Positions 5,732-54,452 of a DNA stretch of 64,000 bases are shown here, piece by piece. Origin of the DNA: a virus. The notes beneath the pieces were generated by a model. It did no database searches and had not been told where the DNA came from. It saw only the letters and a program-made list of their open reading frames with translations. The position numbers were made by a program, and so were the translations under genes. Each line of letters begins with the position of its first letter. Positions within the stretch are counted from its first letter, which is position 1. The DNA lies in IMG/VR virus record IMGVR_UViG_3300020183_000012, positions 32,001 to 96,000 of that record. One strand, 5' to 3'.

Positions 5732-6097
5732 GGGCTCGAAAAGGTATCGATTGGAGGTTGAAACTTAAGATTGCACGCCGTGGTTGGTCGAATGGCCACG
5801 AAAAAAATCGATCAAAAAGTAACTGACAACTATCAGTTCAATTCATACAGAATTGGGTTTACCCAGTTCCGTCTCGCAGCCTAATTCGCTGCAAAGCATC
5901 TCCTGACTCCTGCTGGTGGCAGATGCACATAATAGCAGGATATTCAAACGAGTGTGTTACGAGCGAGTTTGAAGAAATATTCGTAAGAGCTGCCCGTATC
6001 TTGCTTGTGAGTATCGGGTTGCATTAATCACAGGATAAGCGTGTAGACATCTGAGCGTATGCCTAACAACACGGGGGTTCGACTCCCCCCGAGTCCA
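5732..6097 (+). ncRNA. ssrA: tmRNA (SsrA), tag (A)DNYQFNSYRIGFTQFRLAA
   Basis: GGGCTCG/CGAGTCC-A acceptor stem with G3.U wobble; T-arm GGGGGTTCGACTCCCCC; TAACT before resume codon GAC at 5825; tag ORF 5825-5884 ends LAA-TAA. Confidence 0.93.
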
Positions 6098-6100
6098 CAT

Positions 6101-6172
6101 GAGGATGTAACTCAATGGCAGAGTTCTACCCTTCCAAGGTAGATGTTGCGGGTTCGACTCCCGTCATCCTCT
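6101..6172 (+). tRNA. tRNA-Gly(TCC)
   Basis: Cloverleaf; anticodon arm CTACC-CTTCCAA-GGTAG. Confidence 0.93.
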
Positions 6173-6175
6173 TTT

Positions 6176-6272
6176 GCGTAGTTAAGTATCACGTCTACTT
6201 CCGTGAAGACTTATATGGATTAGGCTTTCTAGAGGCTGGAATTGAGAATGGGTGCAAGTCCCTCGCTACGCT
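6176..6272 (+). ncRNA. tRNA-like element (non-canonical)
   Basis: GCGTAGT/GCTACGC 7-bp acceptor-like stem and degenerate T-arm GGG-TGCAAGT-CCC between two tRNAs; interior does not fold as a standard cloverleaf. Confidence 0.3.
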
Positions 6273-6276
6273 TTTC

Positions 6277-6349
6277 GCTCCCTTAACTCAGCGGCTAGAG
6301 TGTCGCCTTTACACGGCGGAAGTCACTGGTTCGAATCCAGTAGGGTGCA
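6277..6349 (+). tRNA. tRNA-Val(TAC)
   Basis: Anticodon arm TCGCC-TTTACAC-GGCGG; T-loop TTCGAAT. Confidence 0.92.
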
Positions 6350-6351
6350 TT

Positions 6352-6423
6352 GCCACTTTAGCTCAACGGCAGAGCAGTGCTTTTGTAAAGCACAGGTTGC
6401 GGGTTCGAATCCAGTAAGTGGCT
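6352..6423 (+). tRNA. tRNA-Thr(TGT)
   Basis: GCCACTT/AAGTGGC acceptor; GTGCT-TTTGTAA-AGCAC. Confidence 0.92.
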
Positions 6424-6426
6424 TTT

Positions 6427-6499
6427 GGTCGGGTACTCAAATGGCTAAGAGAATGGATTGCAAATCCATTATGTGCTGGTTCGAATCCAGTCCCGATCT
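6427..6499 (+). tRNA. tRNA-Cys(GCA)
   Basis: ATGGA-TTGCAAA-TCCAT anticodon arm; U73. Confidence 0.92.
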
Positions 6500-6503
6500 T
6501 TAG

Positions 6504-6586
<83 letters not shown>

Positions 6587-6605
6587 TTGCCGATATATGA
6601 TAGAT

Positions 6606-6678
6606 TCCTCTGTAGCTCAGCTGGTAGAGCAGGGAGCTGTTAACTCCCGGGTCACTGGTTCAAATCCAGTCGGAGGAG
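6606..6678 (+). tRNA. tRNA-Asn(GTT)
   Basis: TCCTCTG/CGGAGGA acceptor; GGGAG-CTGTTAA-CTCCC. Confidence 0.93.
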
Positions 6679-6682
6679 TTTT

Positions 6683-6755
6683 GGCACTGTAGCCCAATGG
6701 CAGAGGCGTTTGATTCAAAATCAAAATAGTGTCGGTTCGAGTCCGACCAGTGCTA
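6683..6755 (+). tRNA. tRNA-Leu(CAA), short variable arm
   Basis: TTTGA-TTCAAAA-TCAAA; A73; variable region only 5 nt. Confidence 0.85.
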
Positions 6756-6799
6756 CTAAAATGCCGATATAGATTGGTGTATAACGTGTTGAGGACAAT

Positions 6800-7165
6800 A
6801 TGAGTGATAGAATTAAACTTTACAATTGGGATCTTTTAACGGCCATAAGGCCAAGGAGAATAAAAATGTTTAGATCTTTAAATTATATTGAGCTGTCTGT
6901 TGGTCTTGCGGTTATTTCGCTTGTTGCTTGGTTTTCAACTGGTAATGCTGAGGTATTTTTAACTATTTTTGGACTTGCCTATTTTCTTTCTATGGCTCAC
7001 GCTTGGAAGGTTTCAATGGATAGTGTCAAGGATTCCAATCACAGAGATCATTCCGAAGTAATTAATAGGTTATGGGATCTTGAAGATAAGTACGAAAAGT
7101 GCTCAGGCAGTAAATGCATGGAGACTAGAGAGAAAGTTACTATCACAAGCAAGGCAGATTTCTGA
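6800..7165 (+). CDS. Hypothetical membrane protein (2 TM)
   Basis: 121 aa; SD GAGGA; two hydrophobic segments. Confidence 0.65.
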   Translation: MSDRIKLYNWDLLTAIRPRRIKMFRSLNYIELSVGLAVISLVAWFSTGNAEVFLTIFGLAYFLSMAHAWKVSMDSVKDSNHRDHSEVINRLWDLEDKYEKCSGSKCMETREKVTITSKADF

Positions 7166-7168
7166 AAA

Positions 7169-7621
7169 ATGGAAGAAATCATTTCTGAAGGTCTTACGAT
7201 AAGATCTGAGGATGCATGTGAAGGAGCATCCGTCAACGATGTAGAGGAGATAATCGGTGACGGATGCTTTCTTCATATGCATTTTGTTTCAGATCAACAG
7301 ATAGATATGGTTCTTGCTGATTCTGCAAATACAAATCAGTATTCTTTTTCAATAAAACCAAAATTTGACGAAGATAAATGTAGAATATTTTTGTCATGTG
7401 ACGGTTCTGTCGATAAGTCTTGTGATCATTTGATAAGAGAAATAGGAAAAGATGTAATAGAAGAGAATAAGTCATTGAAAAAAAGAATTGAGTATCTTGA
7501 AAAAAGCATGAAAAGCATAGATATTGAATTGAGGCTTGAGCGTGCAACAAAAACACTTAAAATTAATGAGCTTCTTGACAAGATAAATTCGCTTGAGAAA
7601 CATAAGATTGTAAACAGTTAA
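7169..7621 (+). CDS. Hypothetical protein with C-terminal coiled coil
   Basis: 150-aa ORF directly downstream of the previous gene. Confidence 0.65.
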   Translation: MEEIISEGLTIRSEDACEGASVNDVEEIIGDGCFLHMHFVSDQQIDMVLADSANTNQYSFSIKPKFDEDKCRIFLSCDGSVDKSCDHLIREIGKDVIEENKSLKKRIEYLEKSMKSIDIELRLERATKTLKINELLDKINSLEKHKIVNS

Positions 7622-7624
7622 AAA

Positions 7625-7714
7625 GGATAGATGGCCGAGTGGTTTAAGGCTGCGGTTTACTAAACCGCCGTAGGCTCCAGAAGCTTACCGGGGGTTCGAA
7701 TCCCTCTCTATCCG
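7625..7714 (+). tRNA. tRNA-Ser with unusual ACT anticodon
   Basis: GGATAGA/TCTATCC-G; GCGGT-TTACTAA-ACCGC; long variable arm; G73. Confidence 0.88.
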
Positions 7715-7719
7715 TTAAT

Positions 7720-7806
7720 GGACAGGTGTCCGAGTGGTTGAAGGAGCAGCATTGGAAATGCTGTTTACGGGAAACCGTAACGTGGGTTCGAATCCCACCT
7801 TGTCCG
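7720..7806 (+). tRNA. tRNA-Ser(GGA)
   Basis: CAGCA-TTGGAAA-TGCTG; long variable arm; G73. Confidence 0.93.
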
Positions 7807-7823
7807 TTTATTGGAGGTTTGAT

Positions 7824-50380: not shown

Positions 50381-50455
50381 GGCTCTGTCGTCTAGTCTGG
50401 CTCAGGACTCAGCCCTTTCAAGGCTGCTACACGGGTTCGAATCCCGTCAGAGTCA
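50381..50455 (+). tRNA. tRNA-Glu(TTC)
   Basis: CAGCC-CTTTCAA-GGCTG. Confidence 0.92.
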
Positions 50456-50466
50456 CTCATAAAAAC

Positions 50467-50539
50467 GCCCTCATAGCTCAGTTGGTAGAGCAACCGGCTT
50501 TTAACCGGTTGGTCGTAGGTTCGAACCCTACTGAGGGCA
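50467..50539 (+). tRNA. tRNA-Lys(TTT)
   Basis: ACCGG-CTTTTAA-CCGGT. Confidence 0.93.
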
Positions 50540-50733: not shown

Positions 50734-51030
50734 ATGTCAAGAAAGAACAGATCATACATTTTGGTAGTTCGCTGCACCGTAGACGCGGTGGAATCTGTGC
50801 TTTCTGCGGAAAAAAGGTGTCCTTTTATTAGCAATCAGGTGGATTCCCGATATGCTTCGTCGTGGGGAAGTCAATACGAAATTGTTTATTCATGCAAACT
50901 AAAAAAAGACGCCTTTGCAATCAAGAGATGGTGGCTTGAAAATGGGCAACTGGACAATCCTGAGTTTTCAATAAATCAGTCATGCTCCACATATTCTACA
51001 ACCCGTCAAACGATTCTTTTAGGGTACTGA
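50734..51030 (+). CDS. Hypothetical protein
   Basis: SD AAGGA; 98 aa. Confidence 0.5.
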   Translation: MSRKNRSYILVVRCTVDAVESVLSAEKRCPFISNQVDSRYASSWGSQYEIVYSCKLKKDAFAIKRWWLENGQLDNPEFSINQSCSTYSTTRQTILLGY

Positions 51031-51191
51031 AATACGACTACGAAGTAAGGGACTTCATCAATCGCCCAATTTACTCAGGCGGTCAATGGAAATACATTCA
51101 ACTAAGTCCCGATGACTGCATCGCAAAGTTGATGCAATTCGTCAGAGATGAAACACCGAGCGATGAGTACCGCTCTGACGAACTTATTTGA
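50982..51191 (+). CDS. Hypothetical protein
   Basis: 69-aa ORF. Confidence 0.45.
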   Translation: MLHIFYNPSNDSFRVLKYDYEVRDFINRPIYSGGQWKYIQLSPDDCIAKLMQFVRDETPSDEYRSDELI

Positions 51192-51198
51192 CACAACA

Positions 51199-51243
51199 GG
51201 GTCAGTTTAGGTTGGTTGAGGCTTGTTTAGATAAGGTATGATT
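51199..51243 (+). repeat. Orphan N-G-N-Y-N pentamer tract (9 units)
   Basis: GGGTC AGTTT AGGTT GGTTG AGGCT TGTTT AGATA AGGTA TGATT. Confidence 0.7.
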
Positions 51244-51269
51244 TTTCATCGGGTGAATAAACTAATGGC

Positions 51270-51635
51270 ATGAGTCACCCTTACCATCACGCTCTGTCAA
51301 GTGTCAAGCGTTTCGGAGGCACTTGGAGCGATTACATTGAGATTCACGAATGGTTCGATCAGACGAAGGCTCTTATCCCTGATGTTCGTCATCGGGCAAT
51401 CCTTCATTCGTCTTTCGGAATCTTCCTGTGCCAACAGGTTTTCGGTGAGGTTCTTGTGCGGGATTCTGACGGAAAGCCCGTGCCTGTCCGTACCATTGCG
51501 GAGCAACACATTATTGAGGACATGGGATTTATCCCTACTCCTCAAGATTGGTTTGCGGGTATGCAGCCCGAGAAGTGGATGGCAAGAGGAGCAAAGCCTC
51601 TTTCCGCTGAAACAGAACAAGTTTTGGCTGACTAG
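51270..51635 (+). CDS. DUF6915-like protein
   Basis: HPYHHALSSVKRFGG..DY..IHEWFD..K....D.RHRA..H; R.IAEQHI.ED.GFIP. Confidence 0.75.
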   Translation: MSHPYHHALSSVKRFGGTWSDYIEIHEWFDQTKALIPDVRHRAILHSSFGIFLCQQVFGEVLVRDSDGKPVPVRTIAEQHIIEDMGFIPTPQDWFAGMQPEKWMARGAKPLSAETEQVLAD

Positions 51636-51645
51636 ACAATCTTAA

Positions 51646-51719
51646 GTTCCCGTGGCTCAGTTGGATAGAGCAGCCGCCTTCTAAGCGGCAGGTCGCTGGT
51701 TCGAGTCCAGCCGGGAACG
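51646..51719 (+). tRNA. tRNA-Arg(TCT)
   Basis: GCCGC-CTTCTAA-GCGGC. Confidence 0.93.
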
Positions 51720-51944
51720 CTTCTACGATACCCGGTTCATAGCCGGGTATTTTAACTAATCCGGGGAATCTGCATTATTTTGCTTGCCTATTTGGTCTAT
51801 TGGGCTATAGTTCCACCTCTGAAGAGATGATTCAAGGTGCATAGACTACATAGGTGAAAGTTGCATCCCGAGAATAGACTAATGGGGTAATAGTGCCGCA
51901 CCGAGTGGCACAACAAGTTGAGCATTCGCACAAGGATACAAATA

Positions 51945-52583
51945 ATGCCTGTTGCAAGTCCTATTGATACCGGAACACGCACCTTGACTTTCATCATCAA
52001 GGGAATCGCACCGTTGATGATGCACAACGGTCTGTTGGCTTCGCCCTTCTATTCGTATACCAAGCGTCTGAAGGAGATCACCAAGAAGCGCGGCAAGACC
52101 GAAGAGGATCATATTGAGGTGGCTAAGATTGAGTGGGAAGGCGGTCTTTACATGAGTAGCCGCGATGCGGATACTGGTCTTTGGTCTGAGGACTCGCATC
52201 CCATCATTCCCGCTGAGTGTCTTTACGCGACCCTTCTCGCGGGAGCAAAGGCTTTCAAAGGCGGGATGTCTTTCAAGGCAGGAGTGTTCATTACTCAATC
52301 GGCTCGTCTGCGCTACAAGGGAGACAACAAGATCAAGACTCTTGCTGACCTTCGTGGCAAAGATATTTTCATCGACTCCCGCCTCGTTGATGTAAACGGC
52401 AGCAAGGTGACGCGAACCCGCCCGATCTTCCACGATTGGTCGTGCGAGTTCAATGTTGAGTATGATCCGTCCGTTGTTGATGAAGCAGACCTTATCCGTT
52501 GGGTTCAAACGGGCGGTAGGCTCAAGGGTCTTTGCGAACTGCGTCCAACGATGGGTCGGTTCACCATTGAGTCTTACAAGTGA
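51945..52583 (+). CDS. Stand-alone RAMP/Cas7-like protein
   Basis: 212 aa from MPVASP (SD CAAGGA); beta1 LTFIIKGIAPLMMHN, PIIPAECL, thumb-like IDSRLVDVNGSKVTRTRP, WSCEFNVEY, C-terminal G-rich loop GGRLKGLCELRPTMGRF. Confidence 0.65.
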   Translation: MPVASPIDTGTRTLTFIIKGIAPLMMHNGLLASPFYSYTKRLKEITKKRGKTEEDHIEVAKIEWEGGLYMSSRDADTGLWSEDSHPIIPAECLYATLLAGAKAFKGGMSFKAGVFITQSARLRYKGDNKIKTLADLRGKDIFIDSRLVDVNGSKVTRTRPIFHDWSCEFNVEYDPSVVDEADLIRWVQTGGRLKGLCELRPTMGRFTIESYK

Positions 52584-52589
52584 TGCTCT

Positions 52590-52920
52590 CCTCTCTCCGC
52601 AGAAATGCGTAGAGAGGCTTTCTTATGGTCTGCTTTGGCAGGATACGGTTCGTTGCGCTCAGGAGTGGTCTGCTTCTCGCCTTCTACCGGGGAAACCCGG
52701 TTTGGAGGCTTTCTTTAGGTCGGATGCCCTCAGATTGGGCTAGTTTAGGTAGGGTGTGATGCGATGTGTTCCGCTTCTCGCCTTCTACCGGGGAAACCCG
52801 GTTTGGAGGCTTTCTTTAGTCTTGTTGGGGCATGATACGGTCAGGTTCGGTAAGGTCAGAAGAGGTATGCTTCTCGCCTTCTACCGGGGAAACCCGGTTT
52901 GAAGGCTTTCGTGGGTACGG
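52590..52920 (+). repeat. CRISPR-like array of GAAA-hairpin repeats with pentamer-periodic spacers
   Basis: 42-bp repeat GCTTCTCGCCTTCTACCGGGGAAACCCGGTTTGGAGGCTTTC at 52672, 52773, 52869 (one substitution in copy 3); divergent first hairpin 52590-52617; spacers of 10, 12 and 11 NGNYN units. Confidence 0.9.
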
Positions 52921-52992
52921 CAAAGTTGCATCCGTTGAATAAAGTAGTCTTGCCCAAGTGGGCAATCTCAATCATCTAGGAGCAGAACAACA

Positions 52993-54003
52993 ATGGCACA
53001 TGGAATTAAGAATCGTGATCGCGTCCTCATCGTTGGTGACCGTGGTTGGCACGGGTTGGGTCAGCAGATGGATTCGATCAGCATGACCGATCTCAAGGAG
53101 CAGTTCCCATACTCCTACGAGAAGGTTCCGATGTTCACCGCCGATGGCGTGGAAGTTGAAGGCTTCAAGGCTGTCATCACTACCGATGACAAGCAGAGCA
53201 ACGGTGTCGTGGGTGACACCTACGAGATCATCAACCTTGACGAGATGTTTGGTCTTGCTAACGATCTTGTTGTTGCTCACGGGACGGGTCGTGTTGTCAG
53301 CGCAGGAAGCCTTCACAACCGCGAGGACTTTTTCGTTGATCTCGGCATCGACCGCGAGTTCCGCAGCGGTGAGGATGTCAACAAGCCATTCATCGGTATC
53401 ACCAACAACTTCTGTGGTATGCGCCACTTCGTTGCGGGAGCGCACATGAACAGGATCGTCTGCGCCAATACTCTGAATCTCATGCTCCGCGAAGTCAAGG
53501 GTTCTCCTCGCGCCATCAAGATTCGTCACACTAAGGGTGCATGGAACCGACTCGCTGAGGCGAAGCGCATTCTCGGCATCACCCTTGCCGCGTTCGACAA
53601 GGCTGATGAGGAGATGCACCAAATGATCTCCAAGAAGATGACCGATGCAGAGATCGCTTCGTACTATGATGCCATCATGCCGATGACCAACATCCCGCCT
53701 CGCCGTGCAGACGAGAACGAGGAGCAGTATGAAGCCCGTGTTGAAACCATCGAACGCGCAAACCGCAAGGCTTCCCGTGTCCGTGCAGAGTGGAGCATGA
53801 CGCTTGACAACGAGCGCGGCGTTCTTGGTCAGGAGCCGAACCTTTGGCTTGCGATGAACTCCGTGACCAAGTGGGTTCAGCATGAGAATCAGGTGAAGAA
53901 CGAATCGACCAATCCCCTGATCCGTGGTTGGAGCAACCGTTTTGCAACGGGCTTCAAGATGACAAACGAAGCCCATGACGCAGCATTGTCTGTGCTTGGG
54001 TAA
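52993..54003 (+). CDS. DUF932/DUF945 (TIGR03299-like) phage/plasmid protein
   Basis: WHGLG, SAGSL, RIVCANTL, IKIRHT, LWLAMNSVT.W.QH. Confidence 0.85.
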   Translation: MAHGIKNRDRVLIVGDRGWHGLGQQMDSISMTDLKEQFPYSYEKVPMFTADGVEVEGFKAVITTDDKQSNGVVGDTYEIINLDEMFGLANDLVVAHGTGRVVSAGSLHNREDFFVDLGIDREFRSGEDVNKPFIGITNNFCGMRHFVAGAHMNRIVCANTLNLMLREVKGSPRAIKIRHTKGAWNRLAEAKRILGITLAAFDKADEEMHQMISKKMTDAEIASYYDAIMPMTNIPPRRADENEEQYEARVETIERANRKASRVRAEWSMTLDNERGVLGQEPNLWLAMNSVTKWVQHENQVKNESTNPLIRGWSNRFATGFKMTNEAHDAALSVLG

Positions 54004-54012
54004 ACCGAACTA

Positions 54013-54100
54013 AGGTTAGGTATGGCGAGTCTAGGTATGCCCTGCCATTGTATGGTCTGTCAAGTTCAGTCCCCTTCACCGGAGAAATCCGGTGGAGGGG
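54013..54100 (+). repeat. Orphan array unit: 12 NGNYN pentamers + GAAA hairpin
   Basis: AGGTT AGGTA TGGCG AGTCT AGGTA TGCCC TGCCA TTGTA TGGTC TGTCA AGTTC AGTCC then CCCCTTCACCGGA-GAAA-TCCGGTGGAGGGG. Confidence 0.8.
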
Positions 54101-54122
54101 TTTTGCCGATAAACATAATGAC

Positions 54123-54193
54123 TGCCTTGTGGTGAAACGGTATCACGGGAGACTTTGGATCTCCTTTTCTTGGTTCAAATCCAAGCAGGGCAA
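54123..54193 (+). tRNA. tRNA-Gln(TTG)
   Basis: TGCCTTG/CAGGGCA; GGAGA-CTTTGGA-TCTCC. Confidence 0.9.
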
Positions 54194-54236
54194 ATCTTTC
54201 ATCCTGGAAATAAACTAATCGGACAAGGAGAACCGG

Positions 54237-54452
54237 ATGCAGAACCCCGTTACCATCACCGAAAACTGCCGAATCACCGGAGAGGCTTACTCAGTCACGG
54301 TGGATTCAGGCGACCTTGAGCGTTACAAGAACGGCGAGGGTCTGATTCAGAACATCTTCCACTACCTTAACGCAGGGGATCGTGAGTTCATCAAGACAGG
54401 CATCTCGCCCAAGGGTTGGGAAATCATGTTTGCAAACGAAGAAGAGGACTAA
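54237..54452 (+). CDS. Small conserved phage protein
   Basis: LIQNIF.YL.A.DREFIKTGISP..W motif; repeat promoter + SD. Confidence 0.75.
   Translation: MQNPVTITENCRITGEAYSVTVDSGDLERYKNGEGLIQNIFHYLNAGDREFIKTGISPKGWEIMFANEEED

Follow-up and report, generated by a model that had tools for sequence, protein, structure and literature searches.

A probable VIPR locus with a relaxed G-N-Y handle in a large uncultured phage

The window analysed here comprises 64,000 nucleotides (nt), bases 32001-96000 of the 146,719-bp IMG/VR virus record IMGVR_UViG_3300020183_000012, and carries a gene for a 212-amino-acid (aa) Cas7-like protein next to tracts of phased pentamers. The locus is very probably a VIPR system of a large uncultured phage, in which a Vipr protein and hairpin-delimited guides with a G-N-Y/NN code would act as a gapped-code repressor. 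VIPR (Viral Interference Programmable Repeat) is a virus-encoded relative of CRISPR that was published in 2026 (10.64898/2026.04.26.720920, 10.64898/2026.04.26.720927). Its protein, the phage-encoded minimal RAMP Vipr, forms polymers with one protomer to each pentamer on RNAs of ~100 nt (vrRNAs), which consist of 9-16 GGY/NN units and an invariant tail. The GGY bases flip into protein pockets and the NN dinucleotides pair with double-stranded DNA (dsDNA) reading NNx, with a 1-nt skip, in an R-loop triplex, and transcription of the natural targets, competing phages and satellites, is repressed as a result (10.64898/2026.04.26.720920, 10.64898/2026.04.26.720927). Seven VIPR types are distinguished, most of them with a vap gene and some with 'a related consensus' repeat, and two type II systems have been characterised, those of phage SUSP1 and of a Pseudomonas fulva prophage (10.64898/2026.04.26.720920, 10.64898/2026.04.26.720927). 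The locus described here is of this already published kind and shows some variant traits, namely a G-N-Y handle, no vap gene found, a plain hairpin tail, and conserved outlying guides by tRNA genes in addition to a variable array. The function that we assign to it draws on homology and on evolutionary signatures. A likeness to VIPR had been suggested in a first-pass annotation of the sequence; VIPR is indeed published, the protein is homologous to the solved SUSP1 Vipr, and the architecture of the repeats is vrRNA-like.

The context of the locus is viral, as it lies in an IMG/VR record among small phage genes that each have a phage promoter motif. The record is estimated by CheckV to be 36% complete, so that, at 146.7 kb, it stems from a large phage.

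The predicted Vipr protein

The vipr gene (51945-52583 of the window, + strand) translates to 212 aa, the length given by the first-pass annotation, and its ATG start is supported because relatives at 84-95% identity are also 212 aa long. A sequence search of the PDB returned one real match, chain D of entry 36pp ('SUSP1 Vipr protein'; E 3.5e-16, 28% identity), in which query residues 14-209 align with chain residues 4-188. Likewise, tblastn against the SUSP1 genome gave a single match, which is its vipr gene (E 2.8e-18). Among the PHROGs the product matches phrog_4652 (unknown function; E 3.5e-43), and a Pfam search of the 212-aa protein returned no match. Searching with a family profile at E <=0.001 brings up 6,897 representatives of clusters made at 50% identity, which shows that the Vipr family is very large.

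An AlphaFold2 model based on 14 relatives reached a predicted local distance difference test (pLDDT) score of 92 and a predicted template modelling (pTM) score of 0.85. Foldseek, run with this model against solved structures, ranked Csm3/Cas7 subunits of type III effectors highest (probability 1.00, template modelling score ~0.5). A Cas7/RAMP fold had been claimed from the letters alone, with structure prediction and Foldseek as the proposed check, and the claim is borne out by the Csm3/Cas7 chains at the top of the matches. The predicted fold is Cas7/Csm3-like, that of a minimal RAMP with a single RRM core, a thumb and a glycine-rich loop. This G-loop, G-L-C-E-L-R-P-x3-G-R-F, aligns with G-V-G-D-W-R-P-x3-G-R-F of SUSP1. 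The RNA- and DNA-contact residues of SUSP1 Vipr, whose roles are taken from 10.64898/2026.04.26.720927, align with this protein as H17 to H27, K33 to K43, R39 to R49, R138 to R159, D177 to E198 and R179 to R200. As judged from alignment and model, the 212-aa protein is a Vipr.

Pentamer tracts and hairpin tails

Pentamers are written here in the frame G1 N2 Y3 N4 N5. When both strands of the 146,719-bp record were scanned, at least 8 of 9 consecutive G-N-Y pentamers were found at five places, all on the + strand and all within 51190-54073 of the window, and at least 8 matches were reached in 0 of 30 Markov shuffles. As a positive control, the same scanner recovered the published vrRNA tracts of phage SUSP1. 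The 5-nt periodicity is real and far above chance. The five places are the three tracts of an array beside vipr and two outlying tracts, at 51200-51244 (vrU) and 54014-54073 (vr4). The first-pass annotation had counted 32 G in 33 units at its position 2 and 31 pyrimidines in 33 at its position 4; our recount agrees, and all that it described was found in place. The interval that it had drawn (51857-52920) holds three genuine tracts, but the locus is wider and the two outlying tracts had been missed.

The array is preceded by a leader hairpin (52590-52617, + strand), which lies directly after the vipr stop codon, as had been noticed at first reading. It has 11 pairs and a GAAA loop followed by CUUUCUU (minimum free energy, MFE, -17.2 kcal/mol, z -3.9), that is, the architecture of a tail with another stem sequence, and equivalents occur in the relatives L007 and L015. 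The three array units, vr1 to vr3, measure ~100 nt each and consist of 10-12 pentamers in tandem and, behind them, an invariant hairpin tail. On the + strand, vr1 (52627-52717) has 10 pentamers (52627-52676), a tail hairpin at 52679-52709 and then UUUCUUU (tail MFE -22.2 kcal/mol, z -4.6). In vr2 (52718-52818), which is delimited by its repeat copy and pentamer counts, 12 pentamers (52718-52777) precede the tail hairpin (52780-52810), and in vr3 (52819-52914) there are 11 (52819-52873) ahead of the hairpin at 52876-52906 (tail MFE -22.7 kcal/mol, z -4.3). The start-to-start spacing of the three hairpin repeats gives the same periods, 101 and 96 nt, that had been reported before. Copies 1 and 2 of the 42-bp repeat core are identical, and copy 3 differs by a single G>A exchange, through which the stem has an A-U pair in place of G.U.

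Over 34 units of the array, G1 is kept in 32 and Y3 is a pyrimidine in 32 (T 28, C 4), N2 is mixed (G 15, A 7, C 6, T 6), and N4 and N5 are near uniform. Over all five tracts, with 9-12 units each, G1 is 92%, Y3 is 97% and G at the second position (G2) is 42%.

Four of the five tracts end in a hairpin tail of 12-13 bp with a GNRA cap. Ten tail and leader hairpins from the window and its relatives were folded, and nine of them show a stem of 11-13 pairs, a GNRA loop and then (C)UUUC, with z-scores of -3.7 to -6.6; the exception is the leader of L007 (z -0.6). Within the clade this one tail shape recurs on at least six quite different stem sequences, which indicates that structure is what is conserved. 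No pseudoknot was evident in the tail, for which no pseudoknot-capable software was applied. An Rfam scan of 50900-54300 matched two tRNAs and returned no ribozyme and no other known RNA family. Two further candidates were rejected. The tail hairpins are not picked up as terminators by a consensus terminator scan. A 12-nt inverted repeat has its arms in the vipr coding sequence (52483) and at the beginning of vr1 (52624), but by our estimate chance alone would produce about two pairs of this kind in a region of 1.4 kb.

The outlying tract vrU (51200-51244, + strand) has nine G-N-Y/NN pentamers, all nine of which match, and ends at the next promoter motif. The other, vr4 (54014-54108, + strand), has 11-12 pentamers (11 of 12 units match), then a perfect 13-bp GAAA hairpin (54071-54100) and UUUU (tail MFE -26.8 kcal/mol, z -5.5). 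It sits between the stop codon of a DUF932 gene and a tRNA-Gln gene, with its hairpin ending 22 nt upstream of the latter.

Evolution of the guides in relatives

Metagenomes hold close relatives of this locus, with protein identities from 95 down to 63%, and their contigs share the order DUF6915, tRNA, vipr, array, DUF932, vr4. A search of viral contigs for related loci with this single protein found none, and neither did blastn of the locus against deposited phages. A 5-nt periodicity downstream of homologues, which the annotation had named as a check, is present, since pentamer tracts occur both in relatives and in SUSP1.

The array beside vipr differs between relatives. It is absent at 84% identity (L004-L006), is represented by one tailed unit in L016 and by one long tract, untailed and then tailed, in L007, and has three units in this phage. 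Several contigs (L011-L015) break off within a tail or pentamer tract, ~90-165 nt past the end of vipr; such ends are typical of assembly breaks at repeats, and arrays of this clade are probably under-represented in assemblies. The outlying tracts are kept: vrU lies at the same position in L004, L016, L007 and L015, and vr4 has orthologues in L004, L016 and L007. The comparison shows two classes of putative guides, conserved outliers (vrU and vr4) and a fast-changing array beside vipr.

Aligning the window with L004 and L016 reveals which positions of the conserved guides are free to change. In vrU the variable columns are 0/9 for G1, 5/9 for N2, 3/9 for Y3, 1/9 for N4 and 0/9 for N5 (script output), and in vr4, where the counts were read by eye from printed sequences, they are 0/11, 5/11, 4/11, 2/11 and 2/11. 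Taken together, G1 varies in 0/20 columns, N2 in 10/20, Y3 in 7/20, N4 in 3/20 and N5 in 2/20, which is 5/40 for NN. Between the window and L004 alone, vr4 has five changes at N2, four at Y3 and one in 22 NN positions. Every Y3 change in vrU and vr4 is C to T or T to C. Even in L015, at 63% identity, a run of five units keeps the same NN as here (TA TG GA TT TA) and differs in its triplets. A fixed G1, a Y3 bound to pyrimidines, a kept NN and a drifting N2 are the pattern expected if the protein reads G1 and Y3 and NN forms a gapped code. Independently of laboratory work, this evolutionary pattern supports a gapped code and a truly relaxed G2.

Two observations on layout were made in the same relatives. 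The vr4 orthologues of L004 (4744-4834) and L016 (4823-4912) contain one 6-nt unit, GAACTA, at the place of GTCTA in the window; the extra base lies in the handle and NN is unchanged, so that a 4-nt handle may be tolerated there. After the DUF932 gene, L007 (4948-5237; 89% identity) carries ~250 nt of pentamer tracts with repeated GGTTTGTCAGTTTGT-like separators instead of hairpins and one final GAAA hairpin, which is a different array layout in a close relative.

Evidence against a VIPR assignment

Several observations weigh against the VIPR reading. The canonical GG is not kept, as the scanner that gives 94% G2 for SUSP1 gives 42% for this locus; the annotation had already read the handle as a relaxed GNY, and these values bear it out. 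The tryptophan of SUSP1 that stacks on G2 (W178) is Leu199 in this protein and leucine throughout its clade. One tract, vrU, has no hairpin tail. When 11 vap and vap-neighbour proteins were compared with the 146.7-kb record, an estimated 36% of the genome, no tblastn match was better than E 0.08. Exact full-length NNx patterns of vr1-vr4 have no match in IMG/VR, in Joint Genome Institute (JGI) metagenomes or in 185,579 species genomes.

As to the handle, G2 lies at 40-63% in most relatives of at least 49% identity, with the exception of L011 (82%, from 11 units), and other members of the Vipr family also show 60-65%. The methods of the preprints list NNNGG, YNNNG and NNNNG as alternative consensus forms (10.64898/2026.04.26.720920, 10.64898/2026.04.26.720927). 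The form found here, G-N-Y (YNNGN), is not among them, and its difference from the published handles is one of degree. The W178 position was compared in 134 representatives of the family with a recognisable G-loop (P0015-P0163). It holds W, Y, F or H in 115 and a non-aromatic residue in 19 (~14%; M, N, S, L, Q, K), which often follows Glu rather than Asp (C-E-M, C-E-L, G-E-L). Across 20 loci there is a weak trend, with G2 fractions of 0.40-0.82 in leucine-bearing loci (this clade and P0011), 0.62-0.95 in tryptophan-bearing and 0.60-0.73 in tyrosine-bearing ones. However, the exchange of W178 for leucine was rejected as a sufficient cause of the relaxed G2, as P0063 (G-E-L) keeps 0.82 and P0053 (C-E-M) 0.80 in independent lineages. 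The closest outgroup of the clade, P0018 (C-E-M, 49% identity), is relaxed (0.40). Across the loci compared, the relaxed handle tracks the clade and not the residue at the W178 position.

The target negative is weak because exact matches were sought, whereas the preprint accepted 80% NN identity. The pattern of vrU (~17.5 specified bases) matched four loci (three distinct ones), which are unrelated and lie without exception in AT-rich contigs, and we judge these matches to be at about chance level. Within the 146.7-kb record, NNx searches with skips of 0-2 gave no match above shuffles (best 14-17 of 18-24 positions), and a skip of 3 returned the guides' own genes and nothing else. In the preprint, too, self-targets are reported to be absent, which agrees with the lack of a self-match in the available record. 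As for partner genes, vipr is followed directly by the array with no vap between them, and the system appears, from its gene content, to work without a vap partner. That no cas genes accompany the locus had been stated for the window and extends to the whole record, in which no Cas1 and no Pfam RAMP match were found.

Neighbouring genes and promoter motifs

A 25-nt direct repeat brackets the locus (51857 and 52922) and is a copy of the promoter-like motif CATC-N5-AATAAACTA. There are 35 copies of this motif in the window (between 18312 and 63792), all on the + strand, where 0.33 are expected, and it precedes most small genes of the region (e.g. 51247, 51864, 52929, 54200). Its two parts are spaced far closer than in sigma-70 promoters, a spacing that points to a polymerase or sigma factor specific to the phage. 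On the basis of the motif count, + strand copies are assigned to a DUF6915 gene (51247-51264), to vipr (51864-51881, part of the repeat at 51857) and to the DUF932 gene (52929-52946, in the second repeat copy at 52922). The copy ahead of vipr stands 63 nt before its start and the next one follows only after the third tail. Because there is no copy between 51864 and 52929, vipr and the three-unit array are probably co-transcribed from the 51864 motif as one transcription unit that ends at the 52929 motif. The leaders after the vipr and DUF932 motifs (51882-51944 and 52947-52992) each open with a short hairpin (GTGCC...GGCAC and TTGCCC...GGGCAA), which may be a shared 5' element of early transcripts.

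The syntenic neighbours on the + strand are the DUF6915 gene (51270-51635, 121 aa; Pfam PF21866, E 1.2e-44) and the DUF932 gene (52993-54003, 336 aa; Pfam PF06067, E 1.7e-29; phrog_1221). Both flank vipr in close relatives and not in distant ones, and they are not counted as accessory genes because the synteny is confined to close relatives. Predicted tRNA genes lie nearby on the same strand, tRNA-Arg(TCT) at 51646-51720, between the DUF6915 gene and the vipr promoter, and tRNA-Gln(TTG) at 54123-54193, directly after vr4. The preceding unit, at whose end vrU is located, also carries tRNA-Glu and tRNA-Lys (50381-50539). The vrRNA-like tracts thus adjoin tRNA genes, and tRNA processing enzymes might help to excise guide RNAs. 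In total, the window carries a transfer-messenger RNA (tmRNA) gene and 16 tRNA genes (5732-7807 and elsewhere), one of which is a tRNA-Ser with the anticodon ACT.

Discussion

By analogy with the work on SUSP1 and P. fulva, a phage promoter at 51864 would drive vipr together with the three-unit array, and the array transcript would yield RNAs of ~100 nt. One Vipr protomer would bind per pentamer, 10-12 per RNA, with the G-N-Y triplet flipped out, and the N4N5 dinucleotides would be displayed to pair with dsDNA reading NNx NNx with a 1-nt skip. A filament formed on its target would then block transcription of the latter. As the record holds neither a nuclease nor a vap partner, repression is more likely than cleavage. 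The variable array beside vipr would fit arms-race guides against competing mobile elements. In the first-pass annotation, a Cas7-like protein was proposed to display a gapped NN code; homology, fold, unit architecture and NN conservation stand behind this part, whereas the mode of action needs to be restated, as the published mode is dsDNA recognition by the NNx rule with transcriptional repression.

An alternative that we regard as unlikely is that a working Vipr-vrRNA complex is mainly regulatory, with vrU and vr4 silencing a gene of the host or one of the phage's own, or binding RNA, so that the locus would be a programmable repressor within an early-gene and tRNA region. The conservation of the outlying guides speaks for a stable target rather than an arms race: their NN code is kept across relatives whose Vipr differs by up to 16%, and a five-unit core persists at 63% identity. 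Moreover, the relatives at 84% identity keep vrU and vr4 without an array beside vipr, and published structures show that Vipr filaments are also able to pair with RNA (10.64898/2026.04.26.720927). However, such a target was not found in the sequences searched, with no above-chance match in the available 146.7 kb of the phage (~36% of its genome) and no exact match of vr4 in the 185,579 species genomes, the metagenomes or IMG/VR, and the published natural targets are competing phages and satellites. That the locus has no guide function at all, the hairpins being leaky terminators or stabilisers of early transcripts, the tracts a decaying simple repeat and the protein a relic, is highly improbable: each hairpin is indeed GC-rich and followed by a short U-rich run, the array is absent in some close relatives and the target searches yielded no target, but none of the tail hairpins was called by the simple terminator scan, decay of a repeat would erode G1 and Y3 at the same rate as N2 (here G1 is invariant, Y3 is C or T only and NN is conserved), and the protein is intact, keeps its contact residues and is found at 63-95% identity in many metagenomes.

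The VIPR assignment remains the best explanation, and the locus is a well-resolved natural example of such a system, from a large uncultured phage, whose GGY handle is relaxed at G2. Its relatives give an evolutionary read-out of the code, with NN conserved, N2 free, Y3 a pyrimidine and G1 fixed, and conserved and variable guides coexist within one phage lineage. The extent to which the handle is required could also be tested with concrete constructs that the locus provides. A bolder proposal, which we put forward tentatively and consider rather doubtful, is that this clade is a VIPR lineage whose protein stopped reading the second guanine and, in two relatives, tolerates even a unit with a 4-nt handle, and that it combines long-lived 'housekeeping' guides among tRNA genes, with a fixed host or phage target, with a fast-turnover array against competitors. 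If true, this would be a natural experiment on the evolution of handle recognition and guide turnover in a pre-CRISPR lineage, and programmable DNA binding would potentially gain a smaller scaffold that needs no vap and is less constrained in sequence.

Comparison with known systems

The locus shares with the characterised VIPR systems of SUSP1 and P. fulva a homologous Vipr, a phage-encoded location and, in the 146.7 kb available, the lack of a self-target. As in those systems, the putative vrRNAs form an array behind the coding genes and also occur singly at other places of the locus, and they are ~100-nt units of 9-12 pentamers with a conserved triplet, a hypervariable dinucleotide and an invariant structured 3' tail. 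In contrast to SUSP1, with its 94% G2 and its W178, G2 is 42% here and the aligned residue is leucine; the predicted tail is a simple hairpin with a GNRA loop, not a pseudoknot. In SUSP1, vipr is followed by a 146-aa vap1, of which no homologue was found in the 146.7-kb record; mutually homologous vap genes lie right after vipr in SUSP1, Medea1, LESphi2, MakoManhole, Trine, LittleE and prophiBWHA-1, and all of the actinophage relatives have a vap1 homologue. The outlying guides of the present locus, unlike those of SUSP1 and P. fulva, adjoin tRNA genes.

With Cas7/Csm3 of class 1 CRISPR-Cas systems the predicted protein has in common the RRM core, the thumb and the glycine-rich loop, and the best matches are the Csm3 chains 7uzw, 9g9e and 6ifl. 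One protomer per fixed RNA period with bases flipped out would be a further likeness, for Vipr by analogy with its solved relative. However, sequence identity is 10-14%, the period is 5 nt instead of 6, and three guide bases rather than one would be sequestered per unit. There is also no cas1, cas2, cas6 or cas10 and no repeat-spacer array here, the 'spacers' being phased pentamers. The deposited genomes of Vibrio phage 1.266.O and Listonella phage phiHSIC (L024 and L023) encode members of the Vipr family (32-33% identity) and have 5-nt tracts flanking the gene. Their tracts, in contrast, read G-C-A-N-N and phenylalanine occupies the W178 position, which makes them another departure from GGY, distinct from the G-N-Y of the present locus.

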